Assembly: GCA_041661275.1 (NCBI GenBank)
Contig: JBAZUU010000002.1
Span: forward strand, 137,148 to 201,147
Direction of reading: 5' to 3'
Length of the DNA: 64,000 nucleotides
Origin: Parcubacteria group bacterium
GTDB lineage: Bacteria > Patescibacteriota > Minisyncoccia > Moranbacterales > UBA2206
Shown here in pieces: positions 3,459 through 19,602 of the stretch. The notes beneath the pieces were generated by a model that was not told the DNA's origin, made no database searches, and was given only the letters and a program-made list of their open reading frames with translations. The translations under genes were made by a program, and so were the position numbers. Each line of letters begins with the position of its first letter. Within the stretch, counting starts at the first letter, position 1.

Positions 3459-6400
3459 ATGAAACTAATCAAGAGAGGGTTAGTTAAAAAAATAGCGAGA
3501 TATTTTTTTGTATTAATATTCTCTTTTTTATTTTTTTCAATTTCTACAACTTTCGCTCAAGATACTGAAAATTCATTTCATATTCCTGGCACTCTTGAGG
3601 GAACGGGAAAACATTTTGAAATTACTGATAGCGAATATCTGAACATATCCTTAGACAGTAGTGAACGTATAGATGTCCGGATAGAATCGATGCCGGAGAT
3701 GATAATTTTACAGTTAAAATCTTCTCCTGACAATGATTCTGCCGAGATTAATATATCAGGGTTATCTTCTAAAACTACTTACCACAAATACGAAGATGAC
3801 TATCAAAATTACGCGCCACTTATAACTAATGAGTATGGCGCGTTTTCTTTTGAACAGGATTTGACCCAAGATCACATTATTTTCATCCAACCAAGAAAAA
3901 GCACAAAGATTATAAAGGATGATGCAACGGGATATGATTGCGGAGGAAGAAATGGCGTTGCCGGGATCGGTAATTGGAACGCATCTTCCAAAACATGCAC
4001 GCTAAACAAGGATGTACAAGAAACTATTCAAATCAATAGTGATGATATAACTCTGGATGGAAATGGGCACAATGTAACTGGATCAAATACGGGAAATGGC
4101 ATTTATGCTTTGGGCAAACGAAACATTATTAAAAATATTAACGTCAGCAATTTTTCATATGGAATTTATCTTCGCAACAGTGGTTCAGTGACTGCCAGTA
4201 CGGCAACAAATAATTATTACGGAATATATGTCTATGGCAATAGCGCAAATCCTCCTGGTGTTACCATTTCAAATAATTCCATTTTCAACAATCATAACTA
4301 TGGCATAAGTTTATTTTACACCAAAGATAATGAAATATCCGATAATATTGTTGGGCCAGGGCATTGGGTTGGTCTTTTTCAAACATCATCAGAGAATAGT
4401 ATCATCGAAAGAAATGATTTTTTTGAAAATCAATACGGGTTAAATCTCAATGGGGATTACAACAATCTCAACGGAAACACAATACGCAACAATAGCACAT
4501 CAAATTTTTATCTTGAAAGTAGTGATATGTCGACAAACAGTATAGGAACAGACAATACAATCGATGGAATGCCAATTTATTATGAAAAAAATGTTTCAAA
4601 TGAAACATATGATTCAATCAATATGGGAGCATTCTATTGCGCTAATTGCCAGAATATCACACTTAAAAATATTTCCTTTTCGGGAAAAGAAGCGCAAATG
4701 TTCTTTTGGCATACTGACAATTCTTTTGTAGAAGAAATAAGTTCTGCGGATAAAAGTATTGATGCCAGGCTGTATTATTCATCCAACAATACAATTGCAA
4801 AAAACACAATTGGCTCCATAAGGATTTATAAATCAAGCAACGAAAACAAGATATATAATAACAATATAATGACCGATGATTCCGGATATACGATAGCAAA
4901 TTCCTCTTTTGGTAATTTATTCAACGAGCCTTTACCGACAGGTGGAAATTATTGGAAGGCAAATGAATCTACTTGCAGGGATTTGAACAATGACAAAATT
5001 TGCGATACTCCGTTCTATTTTGATACCGGCGAAGACGATTATCCCTGGATCCAAGAGAATGATTTCAGTATGCCTTCAGGCAACTCTAACGTAATGTTTT
5101 TGCCGGGGATAAAGGCCAGCCGGCTTTATAAAAAAGATTCCGGCGGAGGCGAAGACCAGCTTTGGGAGCCGAACTATTTTGGAAATGATCTGGAAGATCT
5201 GACTTTGGATGAGAATGGGGAAAGTGTGAATAGCGTCTATACGCGTGATGTGATTGATGAGATAGGAACATCGTGGCTGGGACTCGGACCGAATATCTAT
5301 AAAACATTTATCAATCAACTCGCGTTGTTGAAAAATGACGGTACGATTAATGATTATAATATTTTCGCTTACGACTGGCGGCAAAGTGTGGAAGATATTG
5401 CCGAAAATGGAACGCCGTATAATGGAGAAATAAAATCAGCTATCGCGGAATTAGAAAGTCTGGCGGGAAGTTCCAAGAGCAAAAAAGTGACTTTGGTTGC
5501 CCATTCCAACGGCGGGCTCTTGGCCAAAGCTATAATGTTGGAGCTCGAAAAAACAGGAAAAGCTGACAAAGTGGACAAAATTGTTTTTGTCGGAACGCCG
5601 CAAATGGGCACGCCAAAGGCGATATTATCGATGCTCTATGGCTATGACGAGTCAGCGATTTTTGGAACACTCATTTCGGAGTCAGCTTCCCGTAAACTGG
5701 TCGAGAATATGCCAGGCGCTTATGGTCTTTTGCCGTCAGAAAAATATTTCGAGCGGACGGAGGAACCGTTTATTAATTTTTTGTCGGAGAATACAAAATA
5801 TAAAAGTTTTATGGATGCCTATCAAAGTGGTATTGATAGCTTCGGAGAATTCAGAGAATTTTTGACAGGATCTGGAGATGGCCGGGAAAAGCCGGATGAA
5901 AATGATGTGGAATCGGAGAACAAACTCAGTGGAAATCTTTTTGATCAGGCAGGCGAGTTGCATGATAATTTAGATGGCTGGACGGCACCGGAAAATATTC
6001 AGATAATTGAAATTGCCGGGTGGGGATTGGATACAATAACTGGCGTAGATTATACGGAAAAAGAAAAAGCCGAATGTTATTCTTATTTGGGTTATATCGT
6101 GCCATCCTGCGCCGGAACGGGGAAATATGAACCGGTTTATGAACCAAAATTTACTGTGGATGGAGACAAGGTGGTGACAGCGCCCAGCGCTTTGATGCTT
6201 CCGGAAGGAAGTAATGTGAAGAGGTATTGGGTGGATTTGTATAGGTATAACCACGATCCAATAGTTAATAAAAATCAAAATCATAGTAGTATTTTTGAAG
6301 TTAGTTCTATTCAACAATTTCTTTCAGATATTATTAAAAACACAAGTAATCCTCCCTTACCTGAATATATAAAAACAGCTCGTCCAAATGATTATAATAA

Positions 6401-7724
6401 CGCAAAGCCACGCATTCGCATGTCTCTCTATTCTCCACTGGATATCCATCTCTATGATGAAAATGGAAATCATACTGGACCAAAAAAAGTTACTGATGAA
6501 AATGGAAAAGAGGGAATAATTTTTGAAGAGAATATTCCCAACAGCTACTATTATCAATTCGGTGATCGTAAATATGTTGGTGTGCCAGGTGAAGAAAACA
6601 TCCATATGACTATGGATGGATACGATAATGGAGCTTATACATTGAAGATGGAAGAAGTCATGGAAACTGTCGGCGGCGAAGAAATAATATCTCATACTAC
6701 CTTTGCCGATCTTCCAGTATCGCCTGAAACATCTGTAGCAGTAGATATTCCAGAATCAGGACTTGACAGCTTGTCCAATCTGGAAGCGGATTTTGATGGA
6801 AATGGAGAGGGTGACTATGAAGTTATCCCAATTCCTAATGGTGAAGCTACTCTTCCTGATATGATTCCCCCGCAAACCGCGATTGAGTTATCAGGGACGG
6901 AGGGTGATAATAATTGGTATGCCAGCGATGTCGCGGTGAAGCTTACTGCTGTGGACAATGAAGGAGGATCGGGAGTGAATACAATTTCTTATTCTTTTGA
7001 CAATGGTGCGTCATGGCAAGAATATTTTAATTCGGTGAACATCTCCGGAGAAGGAATATTTAGTTTTCAATATTTTTCCACTGATAAAAAGGGGAACAAG
7101 GAAGAGATAAAAACAGAAAGCATAAAAATAGACAGGACTGCCCCGGAAGCAAAATTTACATTTGATCAAAACAATCAGAAATTTAATATTATTGGGATGG
7201 ATAATTTGTCGCAAAATATTGCGGTTGAGACAGAAGAGCAGGCAGTCAATTCAAAGCCGGAAACCAAAAGGGGGATATTTTTCTGGATTTTTGATATAAT
7301 CAAGAACAGAAAGAAAGAAAAAAACATCATTGCGACTTTGCGTGATGAAGCCGGGAATGAAACGAAAATCAATTTTACGAAGAAAGAAAATAATGATCAT
7401 TTTATCAATATTTTCCCGGAGTCTATTTCGTATAATGGCGTAAAAACGGATTTTTCCAAATCATCGTTGCAATATAAATGGCTTCTGAATTGGAGAAAGA
7501 AAAACTATGTTCTTTTCGGATCGCACATTATGGCAGGAGATGAGCTTTTGGAATCGCACTATCTCCCCAAAAGAAATGAAACGTGGATAATGCAAAGGCC
7601 AAGAGAGCTTGATGACGATGATAATGACGATGACGCGGAGAGGCGTCCAGTCTGGAAAAAGCTTTCTGGAATGGTTGTGCCCTTCATCCAAACGGAACAA
7701 GGAAAAATTGAAATAAAATATTAA
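3459..7724 (+). CDS. Giant secreted/surface protein: signal anchor, parallel beta-helix repeats (~aa 150-480), LCAT/PGAP1-like alpha/beta-hydrolase (lipase/acyltransferase) domain (~aa 540-760), Ig-like domain (~aa 1148-1230), acidic C-terminus
   Basis: N-terminal hydrophobic segment. Repeated NNxxYGI / NxxxGIxL beta-helix units. YDWR motif and AHSNGG (GxSxG) nucleophile elbow. WYASDVAVKL..SGV..ISYSFDNGASW..IDRTAPEA Ig-like motif. Confidence 0.8.
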   Translation: MKLIKRGLVKKIARYFFVLIFSFLFFSISTTFAQDTENSFHIPGTLEGTGKHFEITDSEYLNISLDSSERIDVRIESMPEMIILQLKSSPDNDSAEINISGLSSKTTYHKYEDDYQNYAPLITNEYGAFSFEQDLTQDHIIFIQPRKSTKIIKDDATGYDCGGRNGVAGIGNWNASSKTCTLNKDVQETIQINSDDITLDGNGHNVTGSNTGNGIYALGKRNIIKNINVSNFSYGIYLRNSGSVTASTATNNYYGIYVYGNSANPPGVTISNNSIFNNHNYGISLFYTKDNEISDNIVGPGHWVGLFQTSSENSIIERNDFFENQYGLNLNGDYNNLNGNTIRNNSTSNFYLESSDMSTNSIGTDNTIDGMPIYYEKNVSNETYDSINMGAFYCANCQNITLKNISFSGKEAQMFFWHTDNSFVEEISSADKSIDARLYYSSNNTIAKNTIGSIRIYKSSNENKIYNNNIMTDDSGYTIANSSFGNLFNEPLPTGGNYWKANESTCRDLNNDKICDTPFYFDTGEDDYPWIQENDFSMPSGNSNVMFLPGIKASRLYKKDSGGGEDQLWEPNYFGNDLEDLTLDENGESVNSVYTRDVIDEIGTSWLGLGPNIYKTFINQLALLKNDGTINDYNIFAYDWRQSVEDIAENGTPYNGEIKSAIAELESLAGSSKSKKVTLVAHSNGGLLAKAIMLELEKTGKADKVDKIVFVGTPQMGTPKAILSMLYGYDESAIFGTLISESASRKLVENMPGAYGLLPSEKYFERTEEPFINFLSENTKYKSFMDAYQSGIDSFGEFREFLTGSGDGREKPDENDVESENKLSGNLFDQAGELHDNLDGWTAPENIQIIEIAGWGLDTITGVDYTEKEKAECYSYLGYIVPSCAGTGKYEPVYEPKFTVDGDKVVTAPSALMLPEGSNVKRYWVDLYRYNHDPIVNKNQNHSSIFEVSSIQQFLSDIIKNTSNPPLPEYIKTARPNDYNNAKPRIRMSLYSPLDIHLYDENGNHTGPKKVTDENGKEGIIFEENIPNSYYYQFGDRKYVGVPGEENIHMTMDGYDNGAYTLKMEEVMETVGGEEIISHTTFADLPVSPETSVAVDIPESGLDSLSNLEADFDGNGEGDYEVIPIPNGEATLPDMIPPQTAIELSGTEGDNNWYASDVAVKLTAVDNEGGSGVNTISYSFDNGASWQEYFNSVNISGEGIFSFQYFSTDKKGNKEEIKTESIKIDRTAPEAKFTFDQNNQKFNIIGMDNLSQNIAVETEEQAVNSKPETKRGIFFWIFDIIKNRKKEKNIIATLRDEAGNETKINFTKKENNDHFINIFPESISYNGVKTDFSKSSLQYKWLLNWRKKNYVLFGSHIMAGDELLESHYLPKRNETWIMQRPRELDDDDNDDDAERRPVWKKLSGMVVPFIQTEQGKIEIKY

Positions 7725-8384: not shown

Positions 8385-8633
8385 CTAAACGCCGTAACTA
8401 CGTGTTTTTTCATGACAGGGAACGCATAATATTCGACAATTATCAACGGTATCAGAACCGCCAGCTTCTTGTGAAATAATATGGTGCGCATGCCATTTCC
8501 GATCCTCAATTTTATTTTGAGGATCAAGCATCTTGTTGCATCGACCATTATGATTGCAGGCGCCTAAGGTGCATTCACACTTTCCGCCCGCTCTACGCCA
8601 CGCTTGGTTGATGACTTCTTGAGAAAAAGCCAT
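8385..8633 (-). CDS. HNH endonuclease (small, stand-alone)
   Basis: C.C..C.HNGRC ... HAHHII..GGSD..DNCRILCVPCH zinc-finger/HNH signature. Confidence 0.8.
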   Translation of the reverse strand: MAFSQEVINQAWRRAGGKCECTLGACNHNGRCNKMLDPQNKIEDRKWHAHHIISQEAGGSDTVDNCRILCVPCHEKTRSYGV

Positions 8634-8799
8634 TGCGTTACATTATGGCCTTACCCCTAGAATAAAGTCTTGTTGGTTATCCGACTTCTAGGGAATCGGA
8701 AAGACGTCTTCAATTTAATATTATAGCAGCTGTATTATTTTAGTCAAGTGCATTTATGCACAACTATAAAGTTATCCACAATCACTATAATAAAGGTAG

Positions 8800-8836
8800 T
8801 TGACGTGTACAAACAGTCATATATAATGTATATATG
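8800..8836 (+). promoter_or_regulatory. Sigma70-like promoter of the lexA-like gene (TTGACG-N16-TATAAT), apparently leaderless, overlapped by palindrome CATATATA-ATG-TATATATG
   Basis: -35 at 8800-8805 and -10 at 8822-8827. The ATG at 8834 is ~7 nt after the -10. Perfect 8+3+8 palindrome at 8818-8836. Confidence 0.45.
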
Positions 8837-9472
8837 AGTATAAAACTAACGCCAAAACAAAGGAACGTTTTAGAATTTATTTACACATTTTTAGAAAATT
8901 CTGGCTTTCCGCCGTCAATTTCCGAGCTAAAAGAAGAGCTCAATGTTTCCTCCAACCAATCAGTTCTGAATTTTTTGGATACGCTTGAAAAAAAGGGCTA
9001 TATAAAAAGAGAAAAGGATCAAGCAAGAGGGCTAAAAATTTTACCGATGGGAGCCAGGGAAATTGGCAAAGACGTTTTAATAAAAGTAGTTGGAACAAGT
9101 GCGGCTGGACCATATATAGAATCCTACGCAAATGCATTTTCGTTTTATCCAGTACAAAAAGGAATTTTGGAAAAAGAAAATATTGCTGATTCCCAGGAGA
9201 AAGTTTTTGTTATTCAGGTTCAGGGTGATTCAATGACAAATATTGGAATAGAAAATGATGATATGCTTTTGGTGAAAGAAGCTAAGGAATTTAAAAGCGG
9301 TGATATTGTGGTGGCGGAAACTGATGAGGGTGCGACTGTCAAAAGATTTATTGCTGAAGGTGGAAAAAGATATTTGAAGCCTGAAAATCCAAACTACGAA
9401 AATATTCTAATAATACCTGGCGAAGTGAGATTTAGAGGAAGAGTAATTTTAAATTTAAGTAAAATAAAATAA
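8834..9472 (+). CDS. lexA: LexA-family repressor (winged-helix DNA-binding domain + S24 peptidase)
   Basis: N-terminus matches the LexA DNA-binding domain (LTPKQRNVLEFI..SGFPPSISEL). QVQGDSM Ser nucleophile and a downstream Lys form the S24 dyad. Confidence 0.85.
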   Translation: MSIKLTPKQRNVLEFIYTFLENSGFPPSISELKEELNVSSNQSVLNFLDTLEKKGYIKREKDQARGLKILPMGAREIGKDVLIKVVGTSAAGPYIESYANAFSFYPVQKGILEKENIADSQEKVFVIQVQGDSMTNIGIENDDMLLVKEAKEFKSGDIVVAETDEGATVKRFIAEGGKRYLKPENPNYENILIIPGEVRFRGRVILNLSKIK

Positions 9473-9476
9473 CAAG

Positions 9477-11435
9477 ATGCTCGAAAAAAATTTGCCTGTC
9501 GAAATAATCAACAAAGTATTCCGTGATCCGGATATGCAATTTGGTTTGGCAAATTTTAGCGATGTGAAGCTGGACCAGGTTTTGAAAATTTTTGAAGGCA
9601 AGGAAGATAAGGGAAAATTCTATGCCAAATGCTTAAAGCGAGGGAAAGACATTTTGATCTATAATGAAGAAAAAAAATTAGGAAAACCTGAGGAGATAAT
9701 CCGCCAGCTCATGGTCTATAAGCTGGTTAATTTTTATAAATACCCTATCGACCGCATCGATGTTGAAGTCGACGTGCAATTCGGACGTGAAATTGGAAAA
9801 AAAAGAGCAGACATTGTGGTTTATCGGGAAGACTTGAAAACTCCCTATTTACTGGTTGAGGTTAAAAAGCCGGATGTGAAAGATGGATTGGGACAACTCA
9901 AAAGCTACGCCAATGCCACTGGCGCGCCGATCCTGATTCTGACCGACGGAAAAATACAAAATAATATTCTTAGAACGGATCCAAATCTTTTTGAAGACCT
10001 GCCGGAGATTCCAAAATTTAACGAAACAGTTGATGACGTACGCAAGGAAAAAATTTCTTACGCAGATTTAAAAGAAGTTGAAAACTTAAAACAGCTTATT
10101 TATGATCTTCAAGAAGTGGTGTTGGCAAACAGTGGCGTCGATTCATTCGACGAAATTTTTAAACTAGTTTACGCCAAACTTTATGATGAGCTGGAAACTC
10201 CAAGAAGTGATAATAGAAGATTTAGGGTTATCGCTGGCGTAACCAATAAGGAAAATCTAGCTAATATCTGTCGTCTATTCGAAGACGCTAAAAAAGAATG
10301 GAAAGATGTTTTCAAGCCTAACGATGAAATAGAAATTCCGGAAAATGTTATTGTTCCGGCAGTTTCACTTCTTCAGAAATTCCGACTTTTTGGTTCTAAC
10401 CTCCAAGTTATTGATGACGCCTTTGAATATCTCATAAACTTGGATGCCAAAGGAGAAAAGGGGCAATATTTTACTCCCCGTCATGTTATCGATATGGCGG
10501 TCAAAATGCTGGCGCCTACTCCCAAGGATTCCATAATTGACACAGCTGCCGGATCTTGCGGGTTTTTACTTCATGCTATGCAATATGTTTGGGACAAAGA
10601 GATTAACAAAGAAAAATACGGTGATGATTATAAAACCAGACAGAAAAATTATGCCGAAAAGCAATTATTTGGAATTGATTTTGATCCTCGCAGCGTAAAA
10701 ATTGGAAAAGCGATGATGCTCATTGCAGGGGACGGAAAAACCAATGTTACATTTGCAAATTCTCTTGATAGCGAAAATTGGAGCGATGACGCTCGGACGA
10801 GATTCCGCCCGTTTCTTGCTAACTCTAAGGACAGTGAAGAAAACCGAAAAAACCAGGAACGAATGACTGATTTTAATTTTGATATTGTTATGACCAATCC
10901 GCCCTTTGCCGGAGAGATAAAGGGCGTGCTTCTCAATCGCTATGACTTGGGTTTCAAATGGGATAAGGAATTTCAAAAAACATCGAAGCATCAAAACAAG
11001 GTTTCTAGGGATATTCTTTTCATTGAGCGAAATTTGAATTTCCTAAAGCCTGGCGGACGAATGGCAATTGTTTTGCCGCAAGGGGTTTTCAATAATACCA
11101 ATTCCGAATATGTCCGGCGGTTTATTATGAATAAAGCGAAAATCTTAGCAGTGGTCGGACTTCATGGAAATACTTTTAAGCCGCACACCGGAACAAAAAC
11201 ATCGGTTTTGTTTTTGGAAAAGTGGGCCGGAAAACCACTTGAAGATTGTCCAATTTTTATGGCTGTTTCGAAACGCGGCGGAAAAGACACGTCAGGAGAT
11301 TATGTTTATAGGAAAGATAGAGAGGGGAATGTGATGTATGATGCAAGTGGGAAGAAAATCATTGATCATGATTTGGATGAGATTGCGGAGGAGTTTTTGA
11401 AATTCACAAATGAAAGCTATCTTAAATTGCAATAA
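9477..11435 (+). CDS. Bifunctional restriction endonuclease-N6-adenine DNA methyltransferase, BcgI subunit A-like (Type IIB/IIG-like): N-terminal HsdR_N-type PD-(D/E)XK domain + gamma-class MTase
   Basis: ADIVVY..LLVEVKK nuclease core (~aa 110-135). AdoMet motif I DTAAGSCGFLL precedes motif IV NPPFAG. 652 aa. No helicase/HsdR gene nearby. Confidence 0.75.
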   Translation: MLEKNLPVEIINKVFRDPDMQFGLANFSDVKLDQVLKIFEGKEDKGKFYAKCLKRGKDILIYNEEKKLGKPEEIIRQLMVYKLVNFYKYPIDRIDVEVDVQFGREIGKKRADIVVYREDLKTPYLLVEVKKPDVKDGLGQLKSYANATGAPILILTDGKIQNNILRTDPNLFEDLPEIPKFNETVDDVRKEKISYADLKEVENLKQLIYDLQEVVLANSGVDSFDEIFKLVYAKLYDELETPRSDNRRFRVIAGVTNKENLANICRLFEDAKKEWKDVFKPNDEIEIPENVIVPAVSLLQKFRLFGSNLQVIDDAFEYLINLDAKGEKGQYFTPRHVIDMAVKMLAPTPKDSIIDTAAGSCGFLLHAMQYVWDKEINKEKYGDDYKTRQKNYAEKQLFGIDFDPRSVKIGKAMMLIAGDGKTNVTFANSLDSENWSDDARTRFRPFLANSKDSEENRKNQERMTDFNFDIVMTNPPFAGEIKGVLLNRYDLGFKWDKEFQKTSKHQNKVSRDILFIERNLNFLKPGGRMAIVLPQGVFNNTNSEYVRRFIMNKAKILAVVGLHGNTFKPHTGTKTSVLFLEKWAGKPLEDCPIFMAVSKRGGKDTSGDYVYRKDREGNVMYDASGKKIIDHDLDEIAEEFLKFTNESYLKLQ

Positions 11436-12264
11436 ATATATGAATAACCCAAAAAGTACCTTGGGTCAGAAATGGATAAATTTTTTAAATGCTGTTTTTA
11501 GTCCAGTTCCAATTTTTTCATTATTAGGCGGATTAGGGCTTCTTTATTTGTCGGTGCACTATAAAGATGATGGCAGATTTTCAATCCTAATTAATTTGGC
11601 GGGCTCTCTTTTGATTGGTATCGGCGGTGCCTTTATTAAAGACAGATATGTTGAACTATCAAATGAATCAATTCTTATAAAAAAAGGTCAATCGGCAGTA
11701 AGAAATTTAGAATCTATCGCAAAACAAATAGAACAAATAAGATCTTGGCTTAAGTTTTTTATTTCTAGTAAAACATCAGATAAAAGAGATCTTGAAGAAA
11801 TCAATCGTCATTTAAGCACTACCGAAATGAACATTGCATCTGGGTTAGCAGATTGGATTGATATTGTTCCAGAGTTAAATAAAAAGGCGGAAGAAATGGC
11901 TGAAAAAGCAAAAAGCTATGAAGAAGTTGTTAAAACCTATGTTGAGGAATTATTTAAAAATAAAAAGAAGCTTTTAGAAGTGGGAGAGAATAAAAAACTT
12001 AAAGAACGATTACAAGAAAGCATAAAAAACCTGGAAAAAGAAGTAAGAGATTTAAAAAAATATAGGCCAGAATTTACTGCGAGTGGAATAATTAGTAGCT
12101 CATCCTTTGGTTCAAATGGAAACGGTCTTTCTTATTTAAATCGAAACTCTCTTGCACGTGGCCTATCAAAAACTTGTTCAAATTGCGGCAGAGTATTCGA
12201 AGATGATATAAATAGGCTTACCATCGGTCCGGATTTGTGCGAGGAATGCAGAAAAACAATATGA
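11410..12264 (+). CDS. Membrane-anchored coiled-coil protein with C-terminal CxxC..CxxC zinc ribbon, unknown function; alternative start at 11439
   Basis: Two N-terminal TM helices, a long K/E-rich predicted coiled coil, and CSNCGRVF..CEEC. Overlaps both flanking RM genes by 26-28 nt (translational coupling). Confidence 0.5.
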   Translation: MKAILNCNKYMNNPKSTLGQKWINFLNAVFSPVPIFSLLGGLGLLYLSVHYKDDGRFSILINLAGSLLIGIGGAFIKDRYVELSNESILIKKGQSAVRNLESIAKQIEQIRSWLKFFISSKTSDKRDLEEINRHLSTTEMNIASGLADWIDIVPELNKKAEEMAEKAKSYEEVVKTYVEELFKNKKKLLEVGENKKLKERLQESIKNLEKEVRDLKKYRPEFTASGIISSSSFGSNGNGLSYLNRNSLARGLSKTCSNCGRVFEDDINRLTIGPDLCEECRKTI

Positions 12265-13598
12265 TAAACTGTTCAATAATCCAAAAATCCCATCTTGAAG
12301 GCGCGATGCGATTAGATGCTGAATATTATTGTAGCGATTCATTAATCGGGTCTAATTTTCATCTAGGCAAAGACGTTGTTTCTTTTGTTCAGTATGGTAC
12401 ATCAAAAGAATTAAACGAGGAAAATAGAGGCTATCCGGTTTTGCGGCTCAATGAATTTGAGGATTGGTTCGCGGGACAACCGACGAAATATTGCAATAAG
12501 ATTAGTGAACAAACTTTTAATGGTTTAAAGCTCAAAAAAGGGGATGTATTAATTTGCAGAACCAATGGGAATCCTAAGCTTGTAGGAAAAGCTGCTCTCG
12601 TTGCGGAAAATACCAACATTGCTTTTGCTTCGTATTTATTTAGAGTTCAAGCTGATTCTTTAAAAATTAATTCCGCCACACTTACTGCGTTTTTAAATTC
12701 TAAAATCGGCAGAGCAGAGATTGAAAAATTTATTATGCCTAGCATTCAATCTAACTTCAGCCCTGCTCAATTTAGACAAATTAAAATACCTATTTTTCCA
12801 CCAGCCTTACAAAAAGAAATTGAAACGCGTTTATTTGACTCATATGAACTTTTAGCCGATTCGAAATCTTCTTATCAGCAAGCTGAAGATTTACTATTAG
12901 AAGAGCTGGGATTAAAAAATTTTGATTTTGAAAAAATATTGTCATCAGTTGTTAATTATTCCGATGTTCTAGAAGCTGAAAGAATAGACGCAGAATATTT
13001 TCAGCCGAAATATGAAAAACTGATTTCGAAAATAAAGGAAAGAAATTATAAAACCTTGCCGGAAATTATAGAAAATGTGCCTGCTGTTTTTAACGCCGCT
13101 TCAAAACCGTCAGAAAATTTCAAATACGTAGAGTTATCAAATATTAATCCTTCCGTTGGAATAATTGATGGTTTTTCAGAAGTATCAGGAAGAGAAGCGC
13201 CAGGAAGAGCGAAAAGAATATTAAAGTCTGGCGATGTAATAGTTTCAAGTGTAGAAGGATCGCTGGAAAAAGTTGCGCTGGTTGATAAAGAGCAAGATGG
13301 ACATCTTGCATCAACAGGATTTTTTCAATTGCGAAGTGATAAAATTTTGCCAGAAGTTTTACTTGTTATAGCCAGGAGTTTGGTTTTTCAAATGCAACTC
13401 GAAAAGCAATGTGCTGGAACAATTCTTACTGCCGTGCCAAAAGAGGCGATAAAAAATATTGTTGTACCAATCTTACCGAAAGAAACGCAGCAAAAAATCG
13501 CTGATCTTGTGCGACAGTCGCACAAAGCGCGGAAAAAGGCGAAAGAGCTTTTAGAAGAAGCGAAAAGGAAAGTTGAAGGGATGATAGAGAATAAATAA
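12237..13598 (+). CDS. hsdS: Restriction-modification specificity subunit (HsdS/BcgI-B-like, two target-recognition domains)
   Basis: Duplicated halves (RLDAEYY.. / RIDAEYFQP..). Central and C-terminal conserved helical spacers (IPIFPPALQKEIETRL..; ILPKETQQKIADLVR..). Confidence 0.85.
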   Translation: MRGMQKNNMINCSIIQKSHLEGAMRLDAEYYCSDSLIGSNFHLGKDVVSFVQYGTSKELNEENRGYPVLRLNEFEDWFAGQPTKYCNKISEQTFNGLKLKKGDVLICRTNGNPKLVGKAALVAENTNIAFASYLFRVQADSLKINSATLTAFLNSKIGRAEIEKFIMPSIQSNFSPAQFRQIKIPIFPPALQKEIETRLFDSYELLADSKSSYQQAEDLLLEELGLKNFDFEKILSSVVNYSDVLEAERIDAEYFQPKYEKLISKIKERNYKTLPEIIENVPAVFNAASKPSENFKYVELSNINPSVGIIDGFSEVSGREAPGRAKRILKSGDVIVSSVEGSLEKVALVDKEQDGHLASTGFFQLRSDKILPEVLLVIARSLVFQMQLEKQCAGTILTAVPKEAIKNIVVPILPKETQQKIADLVRQSHKARKKAKELLEEAKRKVEGMIENK

Positions 13599-15348: not shown

Positions 15349-16950
15349 ATGCTTGAAAAACAATTAGAAAAATATTTTAACTTTACCGAATTTCGTCCCG
15401 GTCAAAGGGAAATCGTGGAAACTATTATGTCCGGTCGTGATGTGGTGGCTCTTATGCCGACTGGCGGGGGAAAATCTCTTTGCTATCAATTGCCGGCGAT
15501 CATGAGTGACAAAATTTCGGTCGTCATTTCTCCGCTTATCGCGCTTATGAAAGATCAGGTAGACAGTCTCAACGCGCGCGGAATTCCGGCCACTTTTATA
15601 AACAGCAGTTTAACTTCAGATGAAATAGGAAAACGAATCGAAGACATTAAAAATAACCGGACAAAAATAATTTATGTGGCGCCGGAAAGATTTGGAAACG
15701 CCTCCTGGCAAAAATTGTTTTCCGAACTCGATGTTTTTTTGTTCGCGGTTGATGAAGCTCATTGTGTGTCGCAATGGGGTCATGATTTTCGTCCGGACTA
15801 TCTGGCCATAAAAAAATATATTGCCAACTTGAAGAATCGTCCGGTGGTGGCTGCCTTTACGGCGACGGCCACGCCGGAAGTTAAAAATGATATCATCGAA
15901 CGCCTGGAACTGCAAAATCCCGAAGTTTTTATCCGTGGTTTTGATCGGCCAAATTTGAAATTTTTTGTGGAAAGCAACTTGAAACCGAAGGAAAAATACG
16001 CGGAAGTTTTGCGGATAATTAAGGCTATGGCCGGATCGGGGATAGTTTACGCTTTGACGCGAAAAGACACTGAATTTATCGCCGAATTTTTGCGTCAAAA
16101 TAATATAGTAGCCGCGGCTTATCACGCGGGAATGGAGGCGGAGAAGCGAAAACGGATCCAGGAGGAATTTATGGACAATAAATTCAAGGTAATTGTGGCA
16201 ACCATTGCTTTTGGCATGGGAGTGGACAAAGCGGATATCAGATTTGTGATCCACAGCGGTATGCCCGGAAGCATAGAAGGCTATTATCAGGAAGCCGGAA
16301 GAGCGGGACGCGATGGCGAACAAGCCTTTTGTATCTTGCTTCATGGCAAAAAAGACGTCAGTACCCACAAGTTTTTTATTCGTATGAGTCAGGACGAAAT
16401 GTTTCTGCAAAATAAGACATGGGAAGAGATAAAAAGGGTAGTTGGCATAAAATATGACCGGCTGGAAAAAATGATCGAATATGCTACTCGCCCCAATTGC
16501 CGCCGAAAGATGATCTTGAAATATTTTAGCGATCCGGATTACGAAAGACATAAGGAAAATTGCCGAGGGTGTGATTTTTGCCTGGATTGGAAAAAATCAG
16601 CCGGAGATGCCCAGAAAAGAAAGGAGGCTATCCGTGGTAACAAAAGTTTTCTATCTTCCACTGTTAAAATATCAGCCGATTATTATGAGAAAGGAACGTC
16701 TCTTGAAAATATAGCCAGGATAAGGGGACTTGGTTTAAGGACAATCATTGATCATCTGATCGACTGGTACGCCACCGGAGGAAATCTGCGAGTGGAAGAT
16801 CTTATCAACGCGGAAGAAGAAGGGCTGATAATTTCTGCTATTGAAAAGATCGGAAGCCGAGACAGGCTAAAGCCGATAAAAGATATTCTGCCGGAAGAGA
16901 TCGGTTATGAAAAGATAAAGCTGGTGATAGTTAAGTGGGAAAGAAAGTAG
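15349..16950 (+). CDS. recQ: ATP-dependent DNA helicase RecQ (short form with zinc-binding RQC and C-terminal HTH-like region)
   Basis: FRPGQREIVETIMSGRDVVALMPTGGGKSLCYQLPA; DEAHCVSQWGHDFRPDY; C..C..C.C zinc motif. Confidence 0.9.
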   Translation: MLEKQLEKYFNFTEFRPGQREIVETIMSGRDVVALMPTGGGKSLCYQLPAIMSDKISVVISPLIALMKDQVDSLNARGIPATFINSSLTSDEIGKRIEDIKNNRTKIIYVAPERFGNASWQKLFSELDVFLFAVDEAHCVSQWGHDFRPDYLAIKKYIANLKNRPVVAAFTATATPEVKNDIIERLELQNPEVFIRGFDRPNLKFFVESNLKPKEKYAEVLRIIKAMAGSGIVYALTRKDTEFIAEFLRQNNIVAAAYHAGMEAEKRKRIQEEFMDNKFKVIVATIAFGMGVDKADIRFVIHSGMPGSIEGYYQEAGRAGRDGEQAFCILLHGKKDVSTHKFFIRMSQDEMFLQNKTWEEIKRVVGIKYDRLEKMIEYATRPNCRRKMILKYFSDPDYERHKENCRGCDFCLDWKKSAGDAQKRKEAIRGNKSFLSSTVKISADYYEKGTSLENIARIRGLGLRTIIDHLIDWYATGGNLRVEDLINAEEEGLIISAIEKIGSRDRLKPIKDILPEEIGYEKIKLVIVKWERK

Positions 16951-17222: not shown

Positions 17223-18242
17223 ATGAAAAATAATATATTAAATAACAATAATTCCGGCGAAATAATTATATATGAAGGCGCGGATGGGGCGCCTAGCATT
17301 GAAGTGCGCGTTGAGGGTGAGACGGTGTGGCTGTCACAATCACAACTCGTTGAGCTTTTTCACTCAAGCAAGGCAAATGTGAGCGAGCATATCAAGCACA
17401 TATTTAAAGAGGCTGAATTAAGCCAAGATGCAGTTGTTCGGAATTTCCGAACAACTGCGAGTGATGGAAAAAATTACAACATTGAGCACTACAATCTCGA
17501 CATGATTATCTCTTTGGGTTATAGAATAAAGTCGGATATTGCCACACATTTTCGCCAGTGGGCGACTTCGCGACTTCGTGAATACCTCGTTCAAGGATTC
17601 ACAATGAATGATGAGTTTTTGAAAAACAATGGCGGTGGCTTATATTGGAAGAAACTCTTGTCTCGCATCCGTGATATTCGATCCAGTGAAAAGATGCTGT
17701 ATAGACAAGTCCTGGATCTCTATGCCACAAGCGCGGATTATGATCCTAAATCTCTACATTCAATTAAGTTTTTCAAAATTGTGCAAAACAAATTGCACTA
17801 CGCCGCGCATAAACAGACAGCATCAGAAGTTATTTATAATCGCGCCGATAGTGATAAAAAATTTATGGGTTTGACGGTTTTTGCAGGAGATTTGCCAGTA
17901 CTCGAAGAAGTGAGAATTGCTAAAAATTATTTGTCCGCGCAAGAGTTGGAAAGATTGAACAGACTTGTCTCGGCATATTTCGAATTGGCGGAATTGCGCG
18001 CTATGGATCAGCAAGTAATGCATATGGCGGATCATATTGCATCTTTAGATAAATTACTTTCTGATTACGGCGAAGGTGTTTTGATTGATGCTGGAAAAGT
18101 AACGCATAAAAAAGCCATAGAAAAAGCAGAAAGTGAATACAAAAAATATCAAACTAAAACACTTTCGCCCGCAGAAGGAGCGTATTTGGAAAGCATTAAA
18201 ACTTTAGAGAAAAAGGTTAAAAATAATAAACCAAAGAAATAA
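17223..18242 (+). CDS. RhuM-family (virulence-associated) protein
   Basis: ETVWLSQSQLVELF..HIKHIFKE..KNYNIEHYNLDMIISLGYRIKS matches the RhuM family signature block. Confidence 0.8.
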   Translation: MKNNILNNNNSGEIIIYEGADGAPSIEVRVEGETVWLSQSQLVELFHSSKANVSEHIKHIFKEAELSQDAVVRNFRTTASDGKNYNIEHYNLDMIISLGYRIKSDIATHFRQWATSRLREYLVQGFTMNDEFLKNNGGGLYWKKLLSRIRDIRSSEKMLYRQVLDLYATSADYDPKSLHSIKFFKIVQNKLHYAAHKQTASEVIYNRADSDKKFMGLTVFAGDLPVLEEVRIAKNYLSAQELERLNRLVSAYFELAELRAMDQQVMHMADHIASLDKLLSDYGEGVLIDAGKVTHKKAIEKAESEYKKYQTKTLSPAEGAYLESIKTLEKKVKNNKPKK

Positions 18243-18435: not shown

Positions 18436-19602
18436 ATGAAAGTTTTATTTTTTAATTACGAATATCCGCCACTTGGCGGGGGAGCGGCTTATGCTTCACA
18501 GAATATTTTGAGAGAATATGCCAAACTCACTGATGTTGAAGTGGATTTTGTGACGTCGTCACTGGACAATCAATATCACCTGGAAAAAATGGGCGAAAAT
18601 ATCAGAGTCCATCGGCTTCCCATCGGCAAGAATAAAAATAATCTGACATATCAATCGCAAAAAGATCTCCTGGTCTATGCCTGGAAGTCCTATTTTTTTT
18701 CCAAAAAACTGATCAGCGAGGCTAATAAGAATAAAAAACCATATAATCTGACCCATTCCTTTTTTTCCGTCCCTTGCGGATTTGTTTCTATGATACTAAA
18801 GAAAAAATATAGATTGCCTTACATTGTTTCTCTTCGCGGATCCGATGTTCCGGGCTATTCGGAAAGGTTTTCTTTCATCTACTGTTTTTTGAAACCTCTG
18901 ATAATTCGTATTTGGAAAAAAGCCGGAGCAGTTGTGGCTAACAGTTCGATGCTTCGCGATCTGGCTTTGAAAAGTAATAACCAACAAAAGGTTGATGTTA
19001 TCTATAATGGGATAAATATTGAACATTTTAGGCCTGGAGCTATTTCAAGAGAAAATAAAAATTTCACTATTCTTTGCGCTTCCCGTCTTTCTAGAAGAAA
19101 GGGGTTTGATTATGTTATTGACGCCTTCAATAAAATTCACGAAAAATATCCAGAAGCACGCTTGGTGATTGCCGGTGGGGAGGGGAATGCCGAAGAAGAA
19201 TTAAAAAACCAGACGAAAGAATTAAAATTAGAAAATAAAATAACTTTTACCGGTTTTGTGACACCTAACACCCAATTTTTGAAATATTACAATGCCGCTG
19301 ATGTTTTTGTCCTGCCGTCGCTCAATGAAGGAATGAGCAACAATATGCTGGAAGCGATGGCCAGCGGCCTCCCGATAATTATGACGCCGACCGGCGGGGC
19401 GGAAGAGCTGATAAAAGACGGCGTCAATGGGTGTATCGTCAGATTCAAAGATAGCGCGGACATTGCGGAAAAATTGGAAAAGTTGATAAACAATCCAGAA
19501 CTTTGCAAAAAAATGGGCATTGAAAGCCGTAAGATCGCTGAAAAAATGAGTTGGAAAAGCGTGGCGGAGAAATATTATGAATTATATAAAAACATAGCAT
19601 GA
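18436..19602 (+). CDS. GT4 glycosyltransferase
   Basis: C-terminal EGMSNNMLEAMASGLPII..GG..E (E-x7-E) motif. Confidence 0.85.
   Translation: MKVLFFNYEYPPLGGGAAYASQNILREYAKLTDVEVDFVTSSLDNQYHLEKMGENIRVHRLPIGKNKNNLTYQSQKDLLVYAWKSYFFSKKLISEANKNKKPYNLTHSFFSVPCGFVSMILKKKYRLPYIVSLRGSDVPGYSERFSFIYCFLKPLIIRIWKKAGAVVANSSMLRDLALKSNNQQKVDVIYNGINIEHFRPGAISRENKNFTILCASRLSRRKGFDYVIDAFNKIHEKYPEARLVIAGGEGNAEEELKNQTKELKLENKITFTGFVTPNTQFLKYYNAADVFVLPSLNEGMSNNMLEAMASGLPIIMTPTGGAEELIKDGVNGCIVRFKDSADIAEKLEKLINNPELCKKMGIESRKIAEKMSWKSVAEKYYELYKNIA

Follow-up and report, generated by a model that had tools for sequence, protein, structure and literature searches.

A four-gene operon on the forward strand of the window (the whole 64-kb stretch of DNA analysed here) is probably a mobile regulator-RM-cargo-S operon, in which a Type IIB-like restriction-modification (R-M) system is placed under a dedicated LexA and offers a swappable slot for effector genes. 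The operon combines components of known kinds, namely Type IIB R-M, embedded defence genes, and a controller protein, and the association of a LexA head gene with a variable cargo at the RM-S junction suggests a modular immunity gated by DNA damage. Few regulators of dangerous defence genes are characterised, BrxR and CapH/CapP among them together with C proteins and RptR, and the regulation of such genes is a live question. If this reading is true, a dedicated self-cleaving LexA would link innate immunity directly with the RecA damage signal.

The operon comprises a lexA-type repressor gene (8834..9472, 212 aa), the gene of the RM subunit (9477..11435, 652 aa), a cargo gene (11440..12264, 274 aa), and the gene of the S subunit (12261..13598, 445 aa), all on the forward strand. 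The sequence-only reading had described four co-directional, tightly packed genes, and the ORF listing returned exactly its coordinates, while Pfam and TIGR profile searches agreed with the domains it had assigned to LexA, the nuclease-methyltransferase (MTase) fusion, and S. The overlaps of 26-28 nt that it reported between the 284-aa gene and its neighbours turned out to be an artefact of taking the longest ORFs (11410-12264, 284 aa, for the cargo and 12237-13598, 453 aa, for S). Based on homolog N-termini and the NCBI gene call, the cargo starts at ATG 11440, and S starts at ATG 12261; the corrected junctions are lexA - 4 nt - RM - 4 nt - cargo - ATGA overlap - S, and the four-gene packing is still very tight. 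The reported lack of HsdR was confirmed at the window locus, where no HsdR/helicase, ResIII, or T1R gene was found within about 8 kb of the operon and the one neighbouring helicase is a RecQ carrying RecQ_Zn_bind and HTH_40 domains (15349-16950), and HsdR was not found in about 100 related loci either.

Across these related loci, the RM-S junction contained 69 ORFs belonging to 50 families, all co-directional. These, mostly of accessory anti-phage types, included PD-T7-4 (E 5e-89), NYN/HEC-09-like, DUF3800, DUF4145, DUF4760, and Schlafen families, as well as RnlA, MazF, an OLD-type ATPase, and RhuM/PDC-S05. RM genes 79-83% identical to that of the window carry unrelated cargos (e.g. NYN, DUF3800, LPD3), the cargo family of the window also occurs beside RM genes just 47-50% identical, and the identity of S is uncoupled from that of RM (rho 0.007). 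The middle gene is not a fixed subunit, and the RM-S junction is a cassette slot. Of the two genes suspected to accompany BcgI-like pairs, lexA does co-occur with them, and the 284-aa gene is not fixed there, its place being shared by about 50 families. A cargo was present in 40 loci with LexA and 11 without, and absent from 2 loci with LexA and 20 without; 10 of the 11 cargo loci devoid of LexA are headed by Xre, RadC-N, or HTH_17. It is almost always the case that cargo-bearing loci possess a head regulator and that bare RM+S pairs have neither, and the Fisher p of 3e-8 for the regulator-cargo association overstates the independent events, since this association is largely clade-structured. 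The GC content of the module was below that of its flanks in 31 of the 34 loci compared, and horizontal mobility of the four-part operon is the best explanation.

The cargo protein of the window has two TM segments arranged as a hairpin (about aa 18-37 and aa 47-67) and a conserved helical core (KKGQSAxRN ... LEEINRHL ... DWxDIVPEL), followed by a coiled coil and, past a Ser-rich linker, a C-terminal CxxC-x17-CxxC ribbon. Searches of Pfam, PADLOC v2, PDB, and BFVD returned no match for it. The ORF is nonetheless real and not spurious, with 32 close homologs (39-57% identity) in a family of 545 representative clusters at E<=1e-3. Two members of this family lack the Zn ribbon, and in a canonical Type I operon a gene of the family separates hsdM from hsdS.

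PrrC in EcoprrI, TgvAB in V. cholerae VPI-2, and DarTG2 in an EPEC island are examples of defence genes sitting inside Type I R-M operons, and such genes are the subject of 'guilt-by-embedding' (Payne et al. 2024). The window operon resembles these in having an accessory gene between R-M genes, co-transcribed and variable, with NYN (HEC-09-like) in common, and differs from them in its host, which is a two-gene Type IIB-like system and not Type I, BREX, DISARM, or Hma, as well as in its slot, the RM-S junction. Most likely the cargo acts independently, as an accessory anti-phage effector of the abortive-infection type, and is not an enzyme subunit. Its role in defence would be one of guilt by embedding, since no enzymatic domain or structural relative was detected and distant members of the family are found outside R-M operons. 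The cargo might instead act as a PrrC-type guard, held inactive by RM/S and freed as a suicide effector upon phage anti-restriction. Such a role would suit its embedded position, which is that of prrC in EcoprrI, the occurrence of the same family at the M-S junction of Type IIB-like and canonical Type I operons, the ATGA overlap with S, in which translational coupling favours co-assembly, and the C-terminal Zn ribbon, which on its flexible tether could be a docking module. PrrC, however, combines an ABC-ATPase with an anticodon nuclease, and the window cargo has no ATPase or nuclease domain. Moreover, PD-T7-4, one of the unrelated slot families, functions as a gene on its own, so that embedding alone does not imply physical coupling. 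Together with the distant members outside R-M operons and the two members without a ribbon, these observations make a guard unlikely, and the independent effector is preferred.

In the RM subunit, a helical connector joins the N-terminal PD-(D/E)XK nuclease to a gamma-class N6-adenine MTase. Pfam matched HSDR_N_2 (aa 71-179) and N6_Mtase (aa 311-585) in the 652-aa protein and found no HsdM_N domain; motif I D355-x-A-x-G-S-x-G-F (355-363) precedes N474-P-P-F (474-477). The best PDB match was RM.BsaXI, both by sequence (E 4e-24, against about 1e-14 for HsdM) and by fold (E 2e-27, against about 1e-17), the fold alignment being full length and spanning about 677 columns. The nuclease residues E97, D112, E128, and K130 align with BsaXI E73, D90, E105, and K107, alanine mutants of which are dead (PMC11997821). 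None of the four varies in alignments of 11 and of 30 homologs, and this invariance holds in relatives only 45-52% identical to the window RM, which implies selection on nuclease activity. The nuclease and MTase domains that the sequence-only reading had recognised were thus both found, the nuclease triad on which it hinged is intact, and its preference for BcgI-like Type IIB over Type I was strengthened, with BsaXI ranking first by sequence and fold, the catalytic residues kept, and no HsdR.

The resemblance to BcgI and BsaXI extends to the nuclease-connector-MTase layout of RM, the separate S with two target-recognition domains (TRDs), the absence of a translocase, and, for BsaXI, the identical catalytic E/D/E/K. 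With 652 aa, the window RM resembles the short BcgI-type RM proteins (PMC11997821) and differs from BsaXI, to which it is about 22% identical, in lacking the C-terminal paddle (652 vs 916 aa). In contrast, Type I R-M requires an HsdR with an SF2 motor, which is absent here. Bare RM+S pairs without HsdR occur at many loci, as well as on one Klebsiella plasmid, and in Picosynechococcus RM and S are fused as a single chain. The S subunit is HsdS-like, with two TRDs and PF01420 (Methylase_S) matched twice. Its best PDB matches are Type I S subunits (1e-24), an observation that counts against the Type IIB assignment. A two-component Type IIB-like R-M enzyme of the BcgI/BsaXI kind would be the best explanation for RM and S, an assignment made from sequence and fold comparison to a class whose criteria also include two-sided double-strand cleavage, AdoMet dependence, and (RM)2S stoichiometry.

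A related pair, HsdRM/HsdS of Anabaena (Trichormus) variabilis plasmid D, blocks conjugative transfer on its own (bioRxiv 10.1101/2025.10.21.683720). Its RM is 41% identical to that of the window over 90% of the query and has an adjacent S and no HsdR; it differs in length (917 aa) and in being a bare pair without regulator or cargo. This homolog bears on the view that RM and S form an orphan Type I-like M+S methyltransferase, that is, a regulated epigenetic methylase in which HSDR_N is vestigial or DNA-binding only. Public annotations, which name RM 'N-6 DNA methylase / type I restriction enzyme M protein', the best PADLOC model ('MTase_I', 602 bits), and the likeness of S to Type I HsdS all point towards such a methylase. 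Yet restriction of incoming DNA by the Anabaena homolog depends on hsdRM, distant relatives retain without variation the four catalytic residues mapped by mutagenesis in BsaXI, and the full-length fold match is with BsaXI rather than with HsdM, HsdM_N being missing. An orphan methylase is therefore improbable, and a Type IIB-like restriction enzyme is retained. The entries with HSDR_N_2 that are annotated as 'N-6 DNA methylase / type I M', which number in the thousands, are probably complete Type IIB-like restriction enzymes as well.

The head gene encodes a LexA-family repressor of 212 aa with LexA_DNA_bind (PF01726) and Peptidase_S24 (PF00717) domains. It scored 147 bits with TIGR00498 lexA, above the equivalog cutoff of 111, and its best PDB matches are LexA repressors. 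All 12 aligned module LexAs keep the Ala-Gly site together with the GDSM serine and the TVKRF lysine. The module LexA is predicted to be autocleavable, and RecA*-stimulated cleavage would be expected from the conservation of this machinery. Repressors of the same LexA clade lie directly 5' of RM in about 45 non-redundant loci (gap 0-4 nt, median 1 nt) with unrelated flanks, including topoisomerase, rpoBC, ribosomal proteins, His-kinase, and peptidase M16, and the pairwise identities of LexA and RM correlate (Spearman 0.68). Module LexAs are 38-78% identical among themselves and 27-35% to E. coli LexA. On this comparative evidence, LexA is not a chance neighbour and its link with RM is real and conserved; the synteny survey thereby upheld the early proposal that the LexA head belongs with the BcgI-like pair.

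An alternative is that this LexA is the housekeeping SOS repressor of the host, downstream of which an R-M cassette was inserted by chance. Its score above the LexA equivalog threshold and its NCBI name, 'transcriptional repressor LexA', are what such a repressor would show. Yet the same clade is joined to the same RM family amid unrelated flanks, LexA and RM have co-evolved, and operator matches beyond chance are confined, across the loci scanned, to the module promoter (see below). Furthermore, in MAGs labelled Gammaproteobacteria the module LexA shares 40-50% identity with its CPR counterparts and only 30-35% with E. coli LexA, two of the contexts have another S24 LexA-like paralog close by, and in sister clades other small regulators take the position of LexA. 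A housekeeping repressor is thus very unlikely, and a LexA dedicated to the module is favoured.

The C proteins of Type II R-M are small autoregulatory DNA-binding proteins that are encoded by the first gene and repress their own operon promoter, and RptR of Type I R-M islands is a first-gene repressor acting through promoter sites. The window LexA resembles both as a first-gene DNA-binding regulator, and sister loci even use Xre-type HTH heads. Unlike C proteins, which are small Xre-type HTH proteins with C-boxes, it is LexA-type, and its wHTH with a self-cleaving S24 domain would provide a signal-responsive irreversible off-switch, in contrast to their concentration-dependent timing. LexA-like repressors of mobile elements are represented by lambda CI and SXT SetR, and the control of CBASS by CapH/CapP is DNA-damage-responsive. 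With SOS LexA, the window protein shares its domains, its cleavage and catalytic residues, and a predicted palindromic promoter operator with CTG-N10-CAG-like geometry, whereas the GAC-N6-GTC core is unlike E. coli and Gram-positive boxes and the predicted targets are an R-M enzyme and a defence cassette. In the retrieved literature, no description of a LexA-headed R-M system was found, nor any report of a LexA head gene or an RM-S cargo for BcgI or BsaXI. The order of head HTH, MTase, intervening genes, and S recalls MADS (methylation-associated defence system), and the HTH_17 head of one sister locus is MAD1-like. MADS membership was rejected, the scores being far under the NCBIfam cutoffs for MAD2 (300 vs 720) and MAD5 (137 vs 400), with the mandatory MAD6, MAD7, and MAD8 absent and no MAD matches among the neighbours.

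The operon promoter (8800..8827, forward strand) consists of TTGACG, a 16-nt spacer, and TATAAT, an 11/12 consensus match. The lexA ATG of the window lies 6 nt past the -10, and a leaderless operon mRNA is predicted. Related loci, at least 30 of them, share this architecture, their start codons lying 6-9 nt past the -10. Inside the -35/-10 spacer is the predicted LexA operator (core 12-mer GTACAAACAGTC, 8807..8818, forward strand), a member of a family with the consensus cTGAC-TAAATA-GTCAg, i.e. a palindromic GAC-N6-GTC, which occupies the spacer in at least 30 loci and whose GTC half-site is invariant in 30 of 30 promoters. In a PWM scan of 1.08 Mb of loci, 37 of the 58 matches were at lexA promoters and the rest corresponded to the shuffle expectation (19-27); neither the remainder of the 64-kb window nor the flanks of the loci had an operator above chance. 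The window operator is the top-scoring site of the window; its left half is degenerate (GTA vs GAC) and its PWM score of 15 bits is sometimes reached by shuffled sequence, so that its credibility comes from position and conservation. Comparison across promoters suggests that the module LexA autoregulates via the predicted GAC-N6-GTC operator. A DnaA-box-like 9-mer (TTATCCACA, 8772..8780, forward strand) lies 19 nt upstream of the -35. It is present in the promoter region of 17 of the 45 LexA-headed loci as an exact match and of 28 of the 45 with at most one mismatch, compared with 1.3% and 6.8%, respectively, of random 220-nt stretches of the same loci, and is possibly a second regulatory input.

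In the favoured reading, that of a mobile, LexA-controlled R-M system with an effector slot, S would read a bipartite site and a single RM polypeptide would either methylate adenine or cut the DNA on both sides, no translocase being needed. LexA bound to the spacer operator of its own promoter would hold the whole operon low until RecA-ssDNA filaments, arising from DNA damage or from cut and resected invading DNA, trigger its self-cleavage. RM, cargo, and S would then be derepressed together, and the membrane coiled-coil/Zn-ribbon cargo would ride on the regulation of the operon. RecA being universal, LexA gating would work in any host that the operon enters. Damage-induced restriction is the reverse of the 'restriction alleviation' classically seen in Type I systems, which counts against the proposal.

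Among the alternatives put forward in the sequence-only reading, the conserved LexA link and the variable slot favour a composite defence system that carries a new layer of regulation. It is most improbable that the 274/284-aa protein is a structural subunit tethering the enzyme to the membrane, e.g. at the phage DNA entry site, for although its two-TM hairpin with a long cytoplasmic coiled coil and its tightly coupled co-transcription with RM and S would suit a tether, it belongs to one of about 50 interchangeable slot families, close RM relatives lack it and carry unrelated soluble cargos, and a middle gene is missing from many RM+S pairs.

A more speculative extension, which we hold to be rather doubtful, is that of a portable RecA-sensing platform operating as a two-layer, feed-forward 'restrict, then abort' device, in which RecA filaments raised by the enzyme's cutting of invading DNA or by phage-induced damage would destroy the module LexA, the enzyme would be amplified and a toxic cargo unleashed, cassettes would be swapped by recombination between the conserved 3' end of RM and the 5' end of S, the DnaA box would provide a replication-status input, and the window cargo would represent a new abortive-infection family. 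CPR/Patescibacteria are often without CRISPR, and in these hard-to-cultivate bacteria the RM-S slot represents about 50 candidate defence families, including the 545-cluster family of the window.

The restriction-modification (R-M) operon of the window consists of four co-directional genes on the forward strand, encoding a 212-aa LexA repressor, a 652-aa nuclease-methyltransferase fusion (RM), a middle protein (hereafter, the cargo) and an HsdS-like specificity subunit (S). ORF listing placed them at 8834-9472, 9477-11435, 11410-12264 and 12237-13598, in line with the sequence-only reading, and domain searches recovered the domains assigned to them: LexA_DNA_bind and Peptidase_S24 in the first protein (147 bits with TIGR00498, for a cutoff of 111), HSDR_N_2 and N6_Mtase in the second, and two Methylase_S stretches in the fourth, which had been read as a two-TRD subunit. 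The third protein fell into no family in these searches. The overlaps of 26-28 nt previously described around the third gene turned out to be artefacts of longest-ORF calling. In NCBI and in all homologs, this protein starts at the Met of ATG 11440, and the start of S homologs corresponds to ATG 12261 (MINCSIIQKS...); the actual junctions are two 4-nt gaps followed by an ATGA overlap. The window belongs to a metagenome-assembled genome of the Parcubacteria (CPR), and its cargo, RM and LexA are each 100% identical to NCBI entries for Parcubacteria group bacterium. The internal junctions show no Shine-Dalgarno-like sequence, a scan of the operon for internal promoters returned chance-level counts only, and no forward-strand terminator was found by scan after S.

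By sequence, the closest solved structure to the 652-aa protein is the Type IIB enzyme RM.BsaXI (E 4e-24, versus about 1e-14 for Type I HsdM). Residues E97, D112, E128 and K130 align on BsaXI E73, D90, E105 and K107, four residues whose substitution by Ala abolishes cleavage (PMC11997821). The catalytic site of the nuclease is thus intact by sequence: these four residues do not vary, nor do motif I of the MTase and NPPF, among 11 aligned homologs, including relatives just 45-52% identical to the window RM, or among 30 database homologs. An AlphaFold model (pLDDT 81) matches BsaXI over ca. 677 aligned columns (E 2e-27), and HsdM structures match its MTase part alone (ca. 1e-17). S is similar to Type I HsdS, as expected for BcgI-type enzymes. 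A Type I system with a distant HsdR was rejected, as no HsdR was found in the window or in ca. 100 related loci. The operon had indeed been described as devoid of a helicase/HsdR gene: there is no HsdR within ca. 8 kb, and the helicase found close by is a RecQ carrying HTH_40 at its C-terminus (15349-16950, +), 1.75 kb downstream of the module formed by the regulator, RM, cargo and S. Bare RM+S pairs are widespread, including on a Klebsiella conjugative plasmid, and a single-chain RM-S form occurs in Picosynechococcus. The HsdRM/HsdS pair of Anabaena variabilis plasmid D, which is 41% identical, prevents conjugative transfer, an effect that depends on hsdRM (bioRxiv 10.1101/2025.10.21.683720). 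Together, the BsaXI match in sequence and predicted fold, the catalytic residues, the absence of HsdR, the bare pairs and the Anabaena homolog lead us to file RM+S as a putative Type IIB-like (BcgI/BsaXI-type) system, the class that had initially been favored over Type I. In public databases, RM is just labelled 'N-6 DNA methylase / type I M protein'. Membership in MADS was discarded, with partial MAD2/MAD5 matches far under cutoffs and MAD6-8 absent.

A synteny survey had been suggested to see whether the middle gene accompanies BcgI-like pairs, and it showed that this gene is no constant companion of RM and S. In the first 15 genome loci, the RM-S interval measures 0.66-1.96 kb in every LexA-headed locus and contains unrelated co-directional genes, whereas S abuts RM in LexA-less loci. 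In an enlarged set, the 69 ORFs occupying this junction, or slot, fell into 50 sequence families. A fixed four-gene system is thus ruled out, because the middle gene varies between loci. Slot cargos include PD-T7-4 (E 5e-89), a validated single-gene defence, as well as NYN/HEC-09-like, DUF3800, DUF4145, DUF4760, Schlafen/AlbA_2, RnlA, MazF/PemK, OLD-type ATPase, Trypsin_2, RhuM/PDC-S05, PD-Lambda-5_B and D12 MTase products. RM genes 79-83% identical to that of the window carry other cargos, and the cargo family of the window adjoins RM genes only 47-50% identical to it; cargo identity is thus independent of RM phylogeny. S identity is likewise unrelated to RM identity (Spearman 0.007 over 36 loci), and the S N-terminus (..IIQKSQLEGALRLDAEYY..) remains conserved. 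This uncoupling is consistent with frequent TRD and cargo exchange in the S/cargo region by recombination anchored in conserved ends.

The third ORF, whose being spurious had been named as a refuting outcome, is a real gene: a profile search with the cargo of the window identified 545 representative clusters, 372 of them at E<=1e-10, and almost all are 260-300 aa long and matched along their full length. Two segments of the protein are hydrophobic (ca. aa 18-37 and 47-67), and both of their cytoplasmic sides are positively charged. K82-G-x-S-A-x-R-N, R123-H124 and D138-W-x-D-x-x-P-E are invariant within a conserved helical core. The protein further contains a charged coiled coil, a Ser-rich linker that is disordered, and a CxxC-x17-CxxC ribbon, which is found in 27/29 family members. 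Searches of Pfam, NCBIfam and PADLOC returned coiled-coil noise only; PDB sequence searches and Foldseek against PDB and BFVD identified no relative at E<=0.001, and tblastn against phages and plasmids gave no match. A HEPN-like reading of the conserved R/H residues was abandoned, as their spacing does not fit Rx4-6H. One family member lies between hsdM and hsdS in a canonical Type I operon with HsdR (the P0030 context), and three distant members sit on short contigs away from any R-M context, including one beside a ParA-like gene. The main alternative is a PrrC-like guarding of the R-M complex by the cargo protein; with moderate confidence, we regard this protein as a membrane effector carried as cargo that acts autonomously, in accessory defence or in the manner of abortive infection.

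The co-occurrence of lexA with BcgI-like pairs, suggested beforehand as a point to check, was borne out by an HMM-based survey of genome and metagenome scans, in which one LexA clade was found directly upstream of RM in ca. 45 non-redundant loci, with a median of 1 nt between the LexA stop and the RM start. The flanks of these loci vary (topoisomerase, His-kinase, peptidase M16, rpoBC, ribosomal proteins), and the GC content of the module is lower than that of its flanks in 31/34 loci compared. Pairwise identities of LexA and RM are correlated (Spearman 0.68), and for at least 25 of the best LexA database homologs, the length of the longest contig equals that of one of the best RM homologs. 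All 12 aligned LexA sequences keep the Ala-Gly cleavage site as well as the catalytic Ser and Lys. Module LexAs are 38-78% identical to each other, and just 27-35% identical to E. coli LexA. LexA belongs to the operon unit. Two of the loci included in these identity ranges come from MAGs labelled Gammaproteobacteria, a taxonomy given by record titles only; their flanks have a GC content of 34-35%, which makes cross-phylum transfer likely, and mis-binning may be the explanation instead. A second, more divergent 220-aa S24 LexA-like gene (89 bits with TIGR00498, under the cutoff) was observed in two genomes (L005:7313-7975 and the P0332 context), in both cases a few kb after the module; it could be the housekeeping LexA, in which case the module LexA would be an additional copy of dedicated function.

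The layout upstream of lexA is common to at least 30 loci, with TTGACA, a spacer of 16-17 nt and TATAAT, and a palindrome inside the spacer (consensus cTGAC-TAAATA-GTCAg) whose GTC half-site is invariant in 30/30. In the window, the -35 is located at 8800-8805, the -10 at 8822-8827 and the ATG at 8834; the predicted operator core, GTACAAACAGTC, spans 8807-8818 and has a degenerate left half. The start codon lies 6-9 nt past the -10 in all related loci (6 nt in the window, 8822-8836), a distance implying that the operon mRNA is leaderless, as predicted here. A 12-mer PWM applied at >=13 bits to 1.08 Mb of loci detected 58 sites, 37 of them at lexA promoters, and the remaining 21 correspond to the shuffle expectation of 19-27. 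The 64-kb window has no other credible operator site either, and over the window and the loci scanned there was no sign of a wider LexA regulon. The arrangement is that of a classical autoregulated repressor that would occlude its own promoter, with LexA predicted to bind the palindrome. In many loci, a DnaA-box-like 9-mer, TTATCCACA, occurs in either orientation 10-25 nt upstream of the -35. Exact copies were counted in 17/45 LexA-headed loci versus 1.3% for the background, and copies with at most one mismatch in 28/45 versus 6.8%; in the window, it is found at 8772-8780 and, with one mismatch, at 8754-8762. Related loci with this 9-mer in the promoter region are L006, L022, L029, L030, L031, L034, L036, L038, L046, L052, L054, L059, L061, L062, L066 and L074. 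The 9-mer may serve as an input for DnaA or be bound by some other factor. Divergent from the lexA promoter region is a stand-alone 82-aa HNH endonuclease gene (8385-8633, -) with its own promoter (8747-8720, -; 11/12 match), which is not conserved beside the module in other loci.

Cargo was present in 40 LexA-headed loci and missing from two, versus 11 and 20, respectively, for LexA-less loci. Since head type is largely a clade-level trait, these loci are less independent than a nominal Fisher p of 3e-8 would suggest. Among the 11 cargo loci without LexA, ten have another small gene at their head, encoding Xre HTH_3, RadC (either in full or just its N-terminal HhH domain, UPF0758_N) or HTH_17, so that the association of cargo with a regulator holds across several regulator types. 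In a sister clade, a protein of ca. 105 aa consisting only of the UPF0758_N domain takes the place of LexA, directly or one gene upstream of RM (L037, L039, L040, L043, L047 and L050); some of these loci have an extra gene of 300-390 aa (DUF5655 or no known family) between this head and RM, and full-length RadC is the head of L102. In the Type I operon P0030, HsdM is fused to an N-terminal MerR/HTH_17, which is another regulator domain tied to a cargo-bearing R-M operon; a YgjP-like gene follows HsdR.

The anatomy of the operon, its conservation, its synteny and the placement of its operator are the basis of a working model, from which we infer LexA binding, RecA dependence, the cleavage chemistry and the phenotype of the cargo. 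In the resting state, LexA produced from the leaderless first cistron would repress the single promoter, and low, coupled translation would supply enough RM and S to keep the chromosome methylated. RecA filaments on ssDNA, produced by DNA damage or by resection at the cuts that the enzyme makes in invading DNA, would trigger LexA self-cleavage, upon which the levels of restriction enzyme and cargo effector would rise at the same time. As a caveat, damage-induced restriction runs opposite to Type I restriction alleviation; the RM fusion, however, would raise methylation and cleavage together. Every ingredient of the operon has a precedent, whether Type IIB RM+S enzymes (PMC11997821), defence genes carried inside R-M, BREX, DISARM or Hma operons, or head repressors of R-M islands. 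Three features had no counterpart in the limited literature that could be searched: an R-M operon with its own self-cleaving controller of the LexA family, a two-gene Type IIB-like system with a cargo slot, and the cargo family of the window.

Genes flanking the operon are ordinary chromosomal ones, plus a few with a defence flavor, and no tRNA, Rfam or integration signal was found in the window. A small PDDEXK_3 nuclease (800-1198, +), a secreted-looking protein of 1421 aa with beta-helix/NosD repeats and an LCAT-type lipase domain (3459-7724, +) and the RecQ helicase are not conserved with the module. A conserved fifth gene after S was dismissed: small ORFs are found there in about half of the loci and are not mutually homologous. 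In some loci, tiny basic ORFs (41-60 aa) located right after S are pairwise homologous across distant modules (L004:12216-12341 and L008:11979-12107; L003:11927-12109 and L056:5407-5580). A RhuM-family protein (17223-18242, +; PF13310, E 3e-98) is encoded 3.6 kb downstream of the module; the P0332 context likewise has RhuM after the module, and there is one RhuM match among the slot cargos. The glycosyltransferase encoded at 18436-19602 also matches the 'GT4-conflict' family, and with RhuM this area may constitute a small defence neighborhood.
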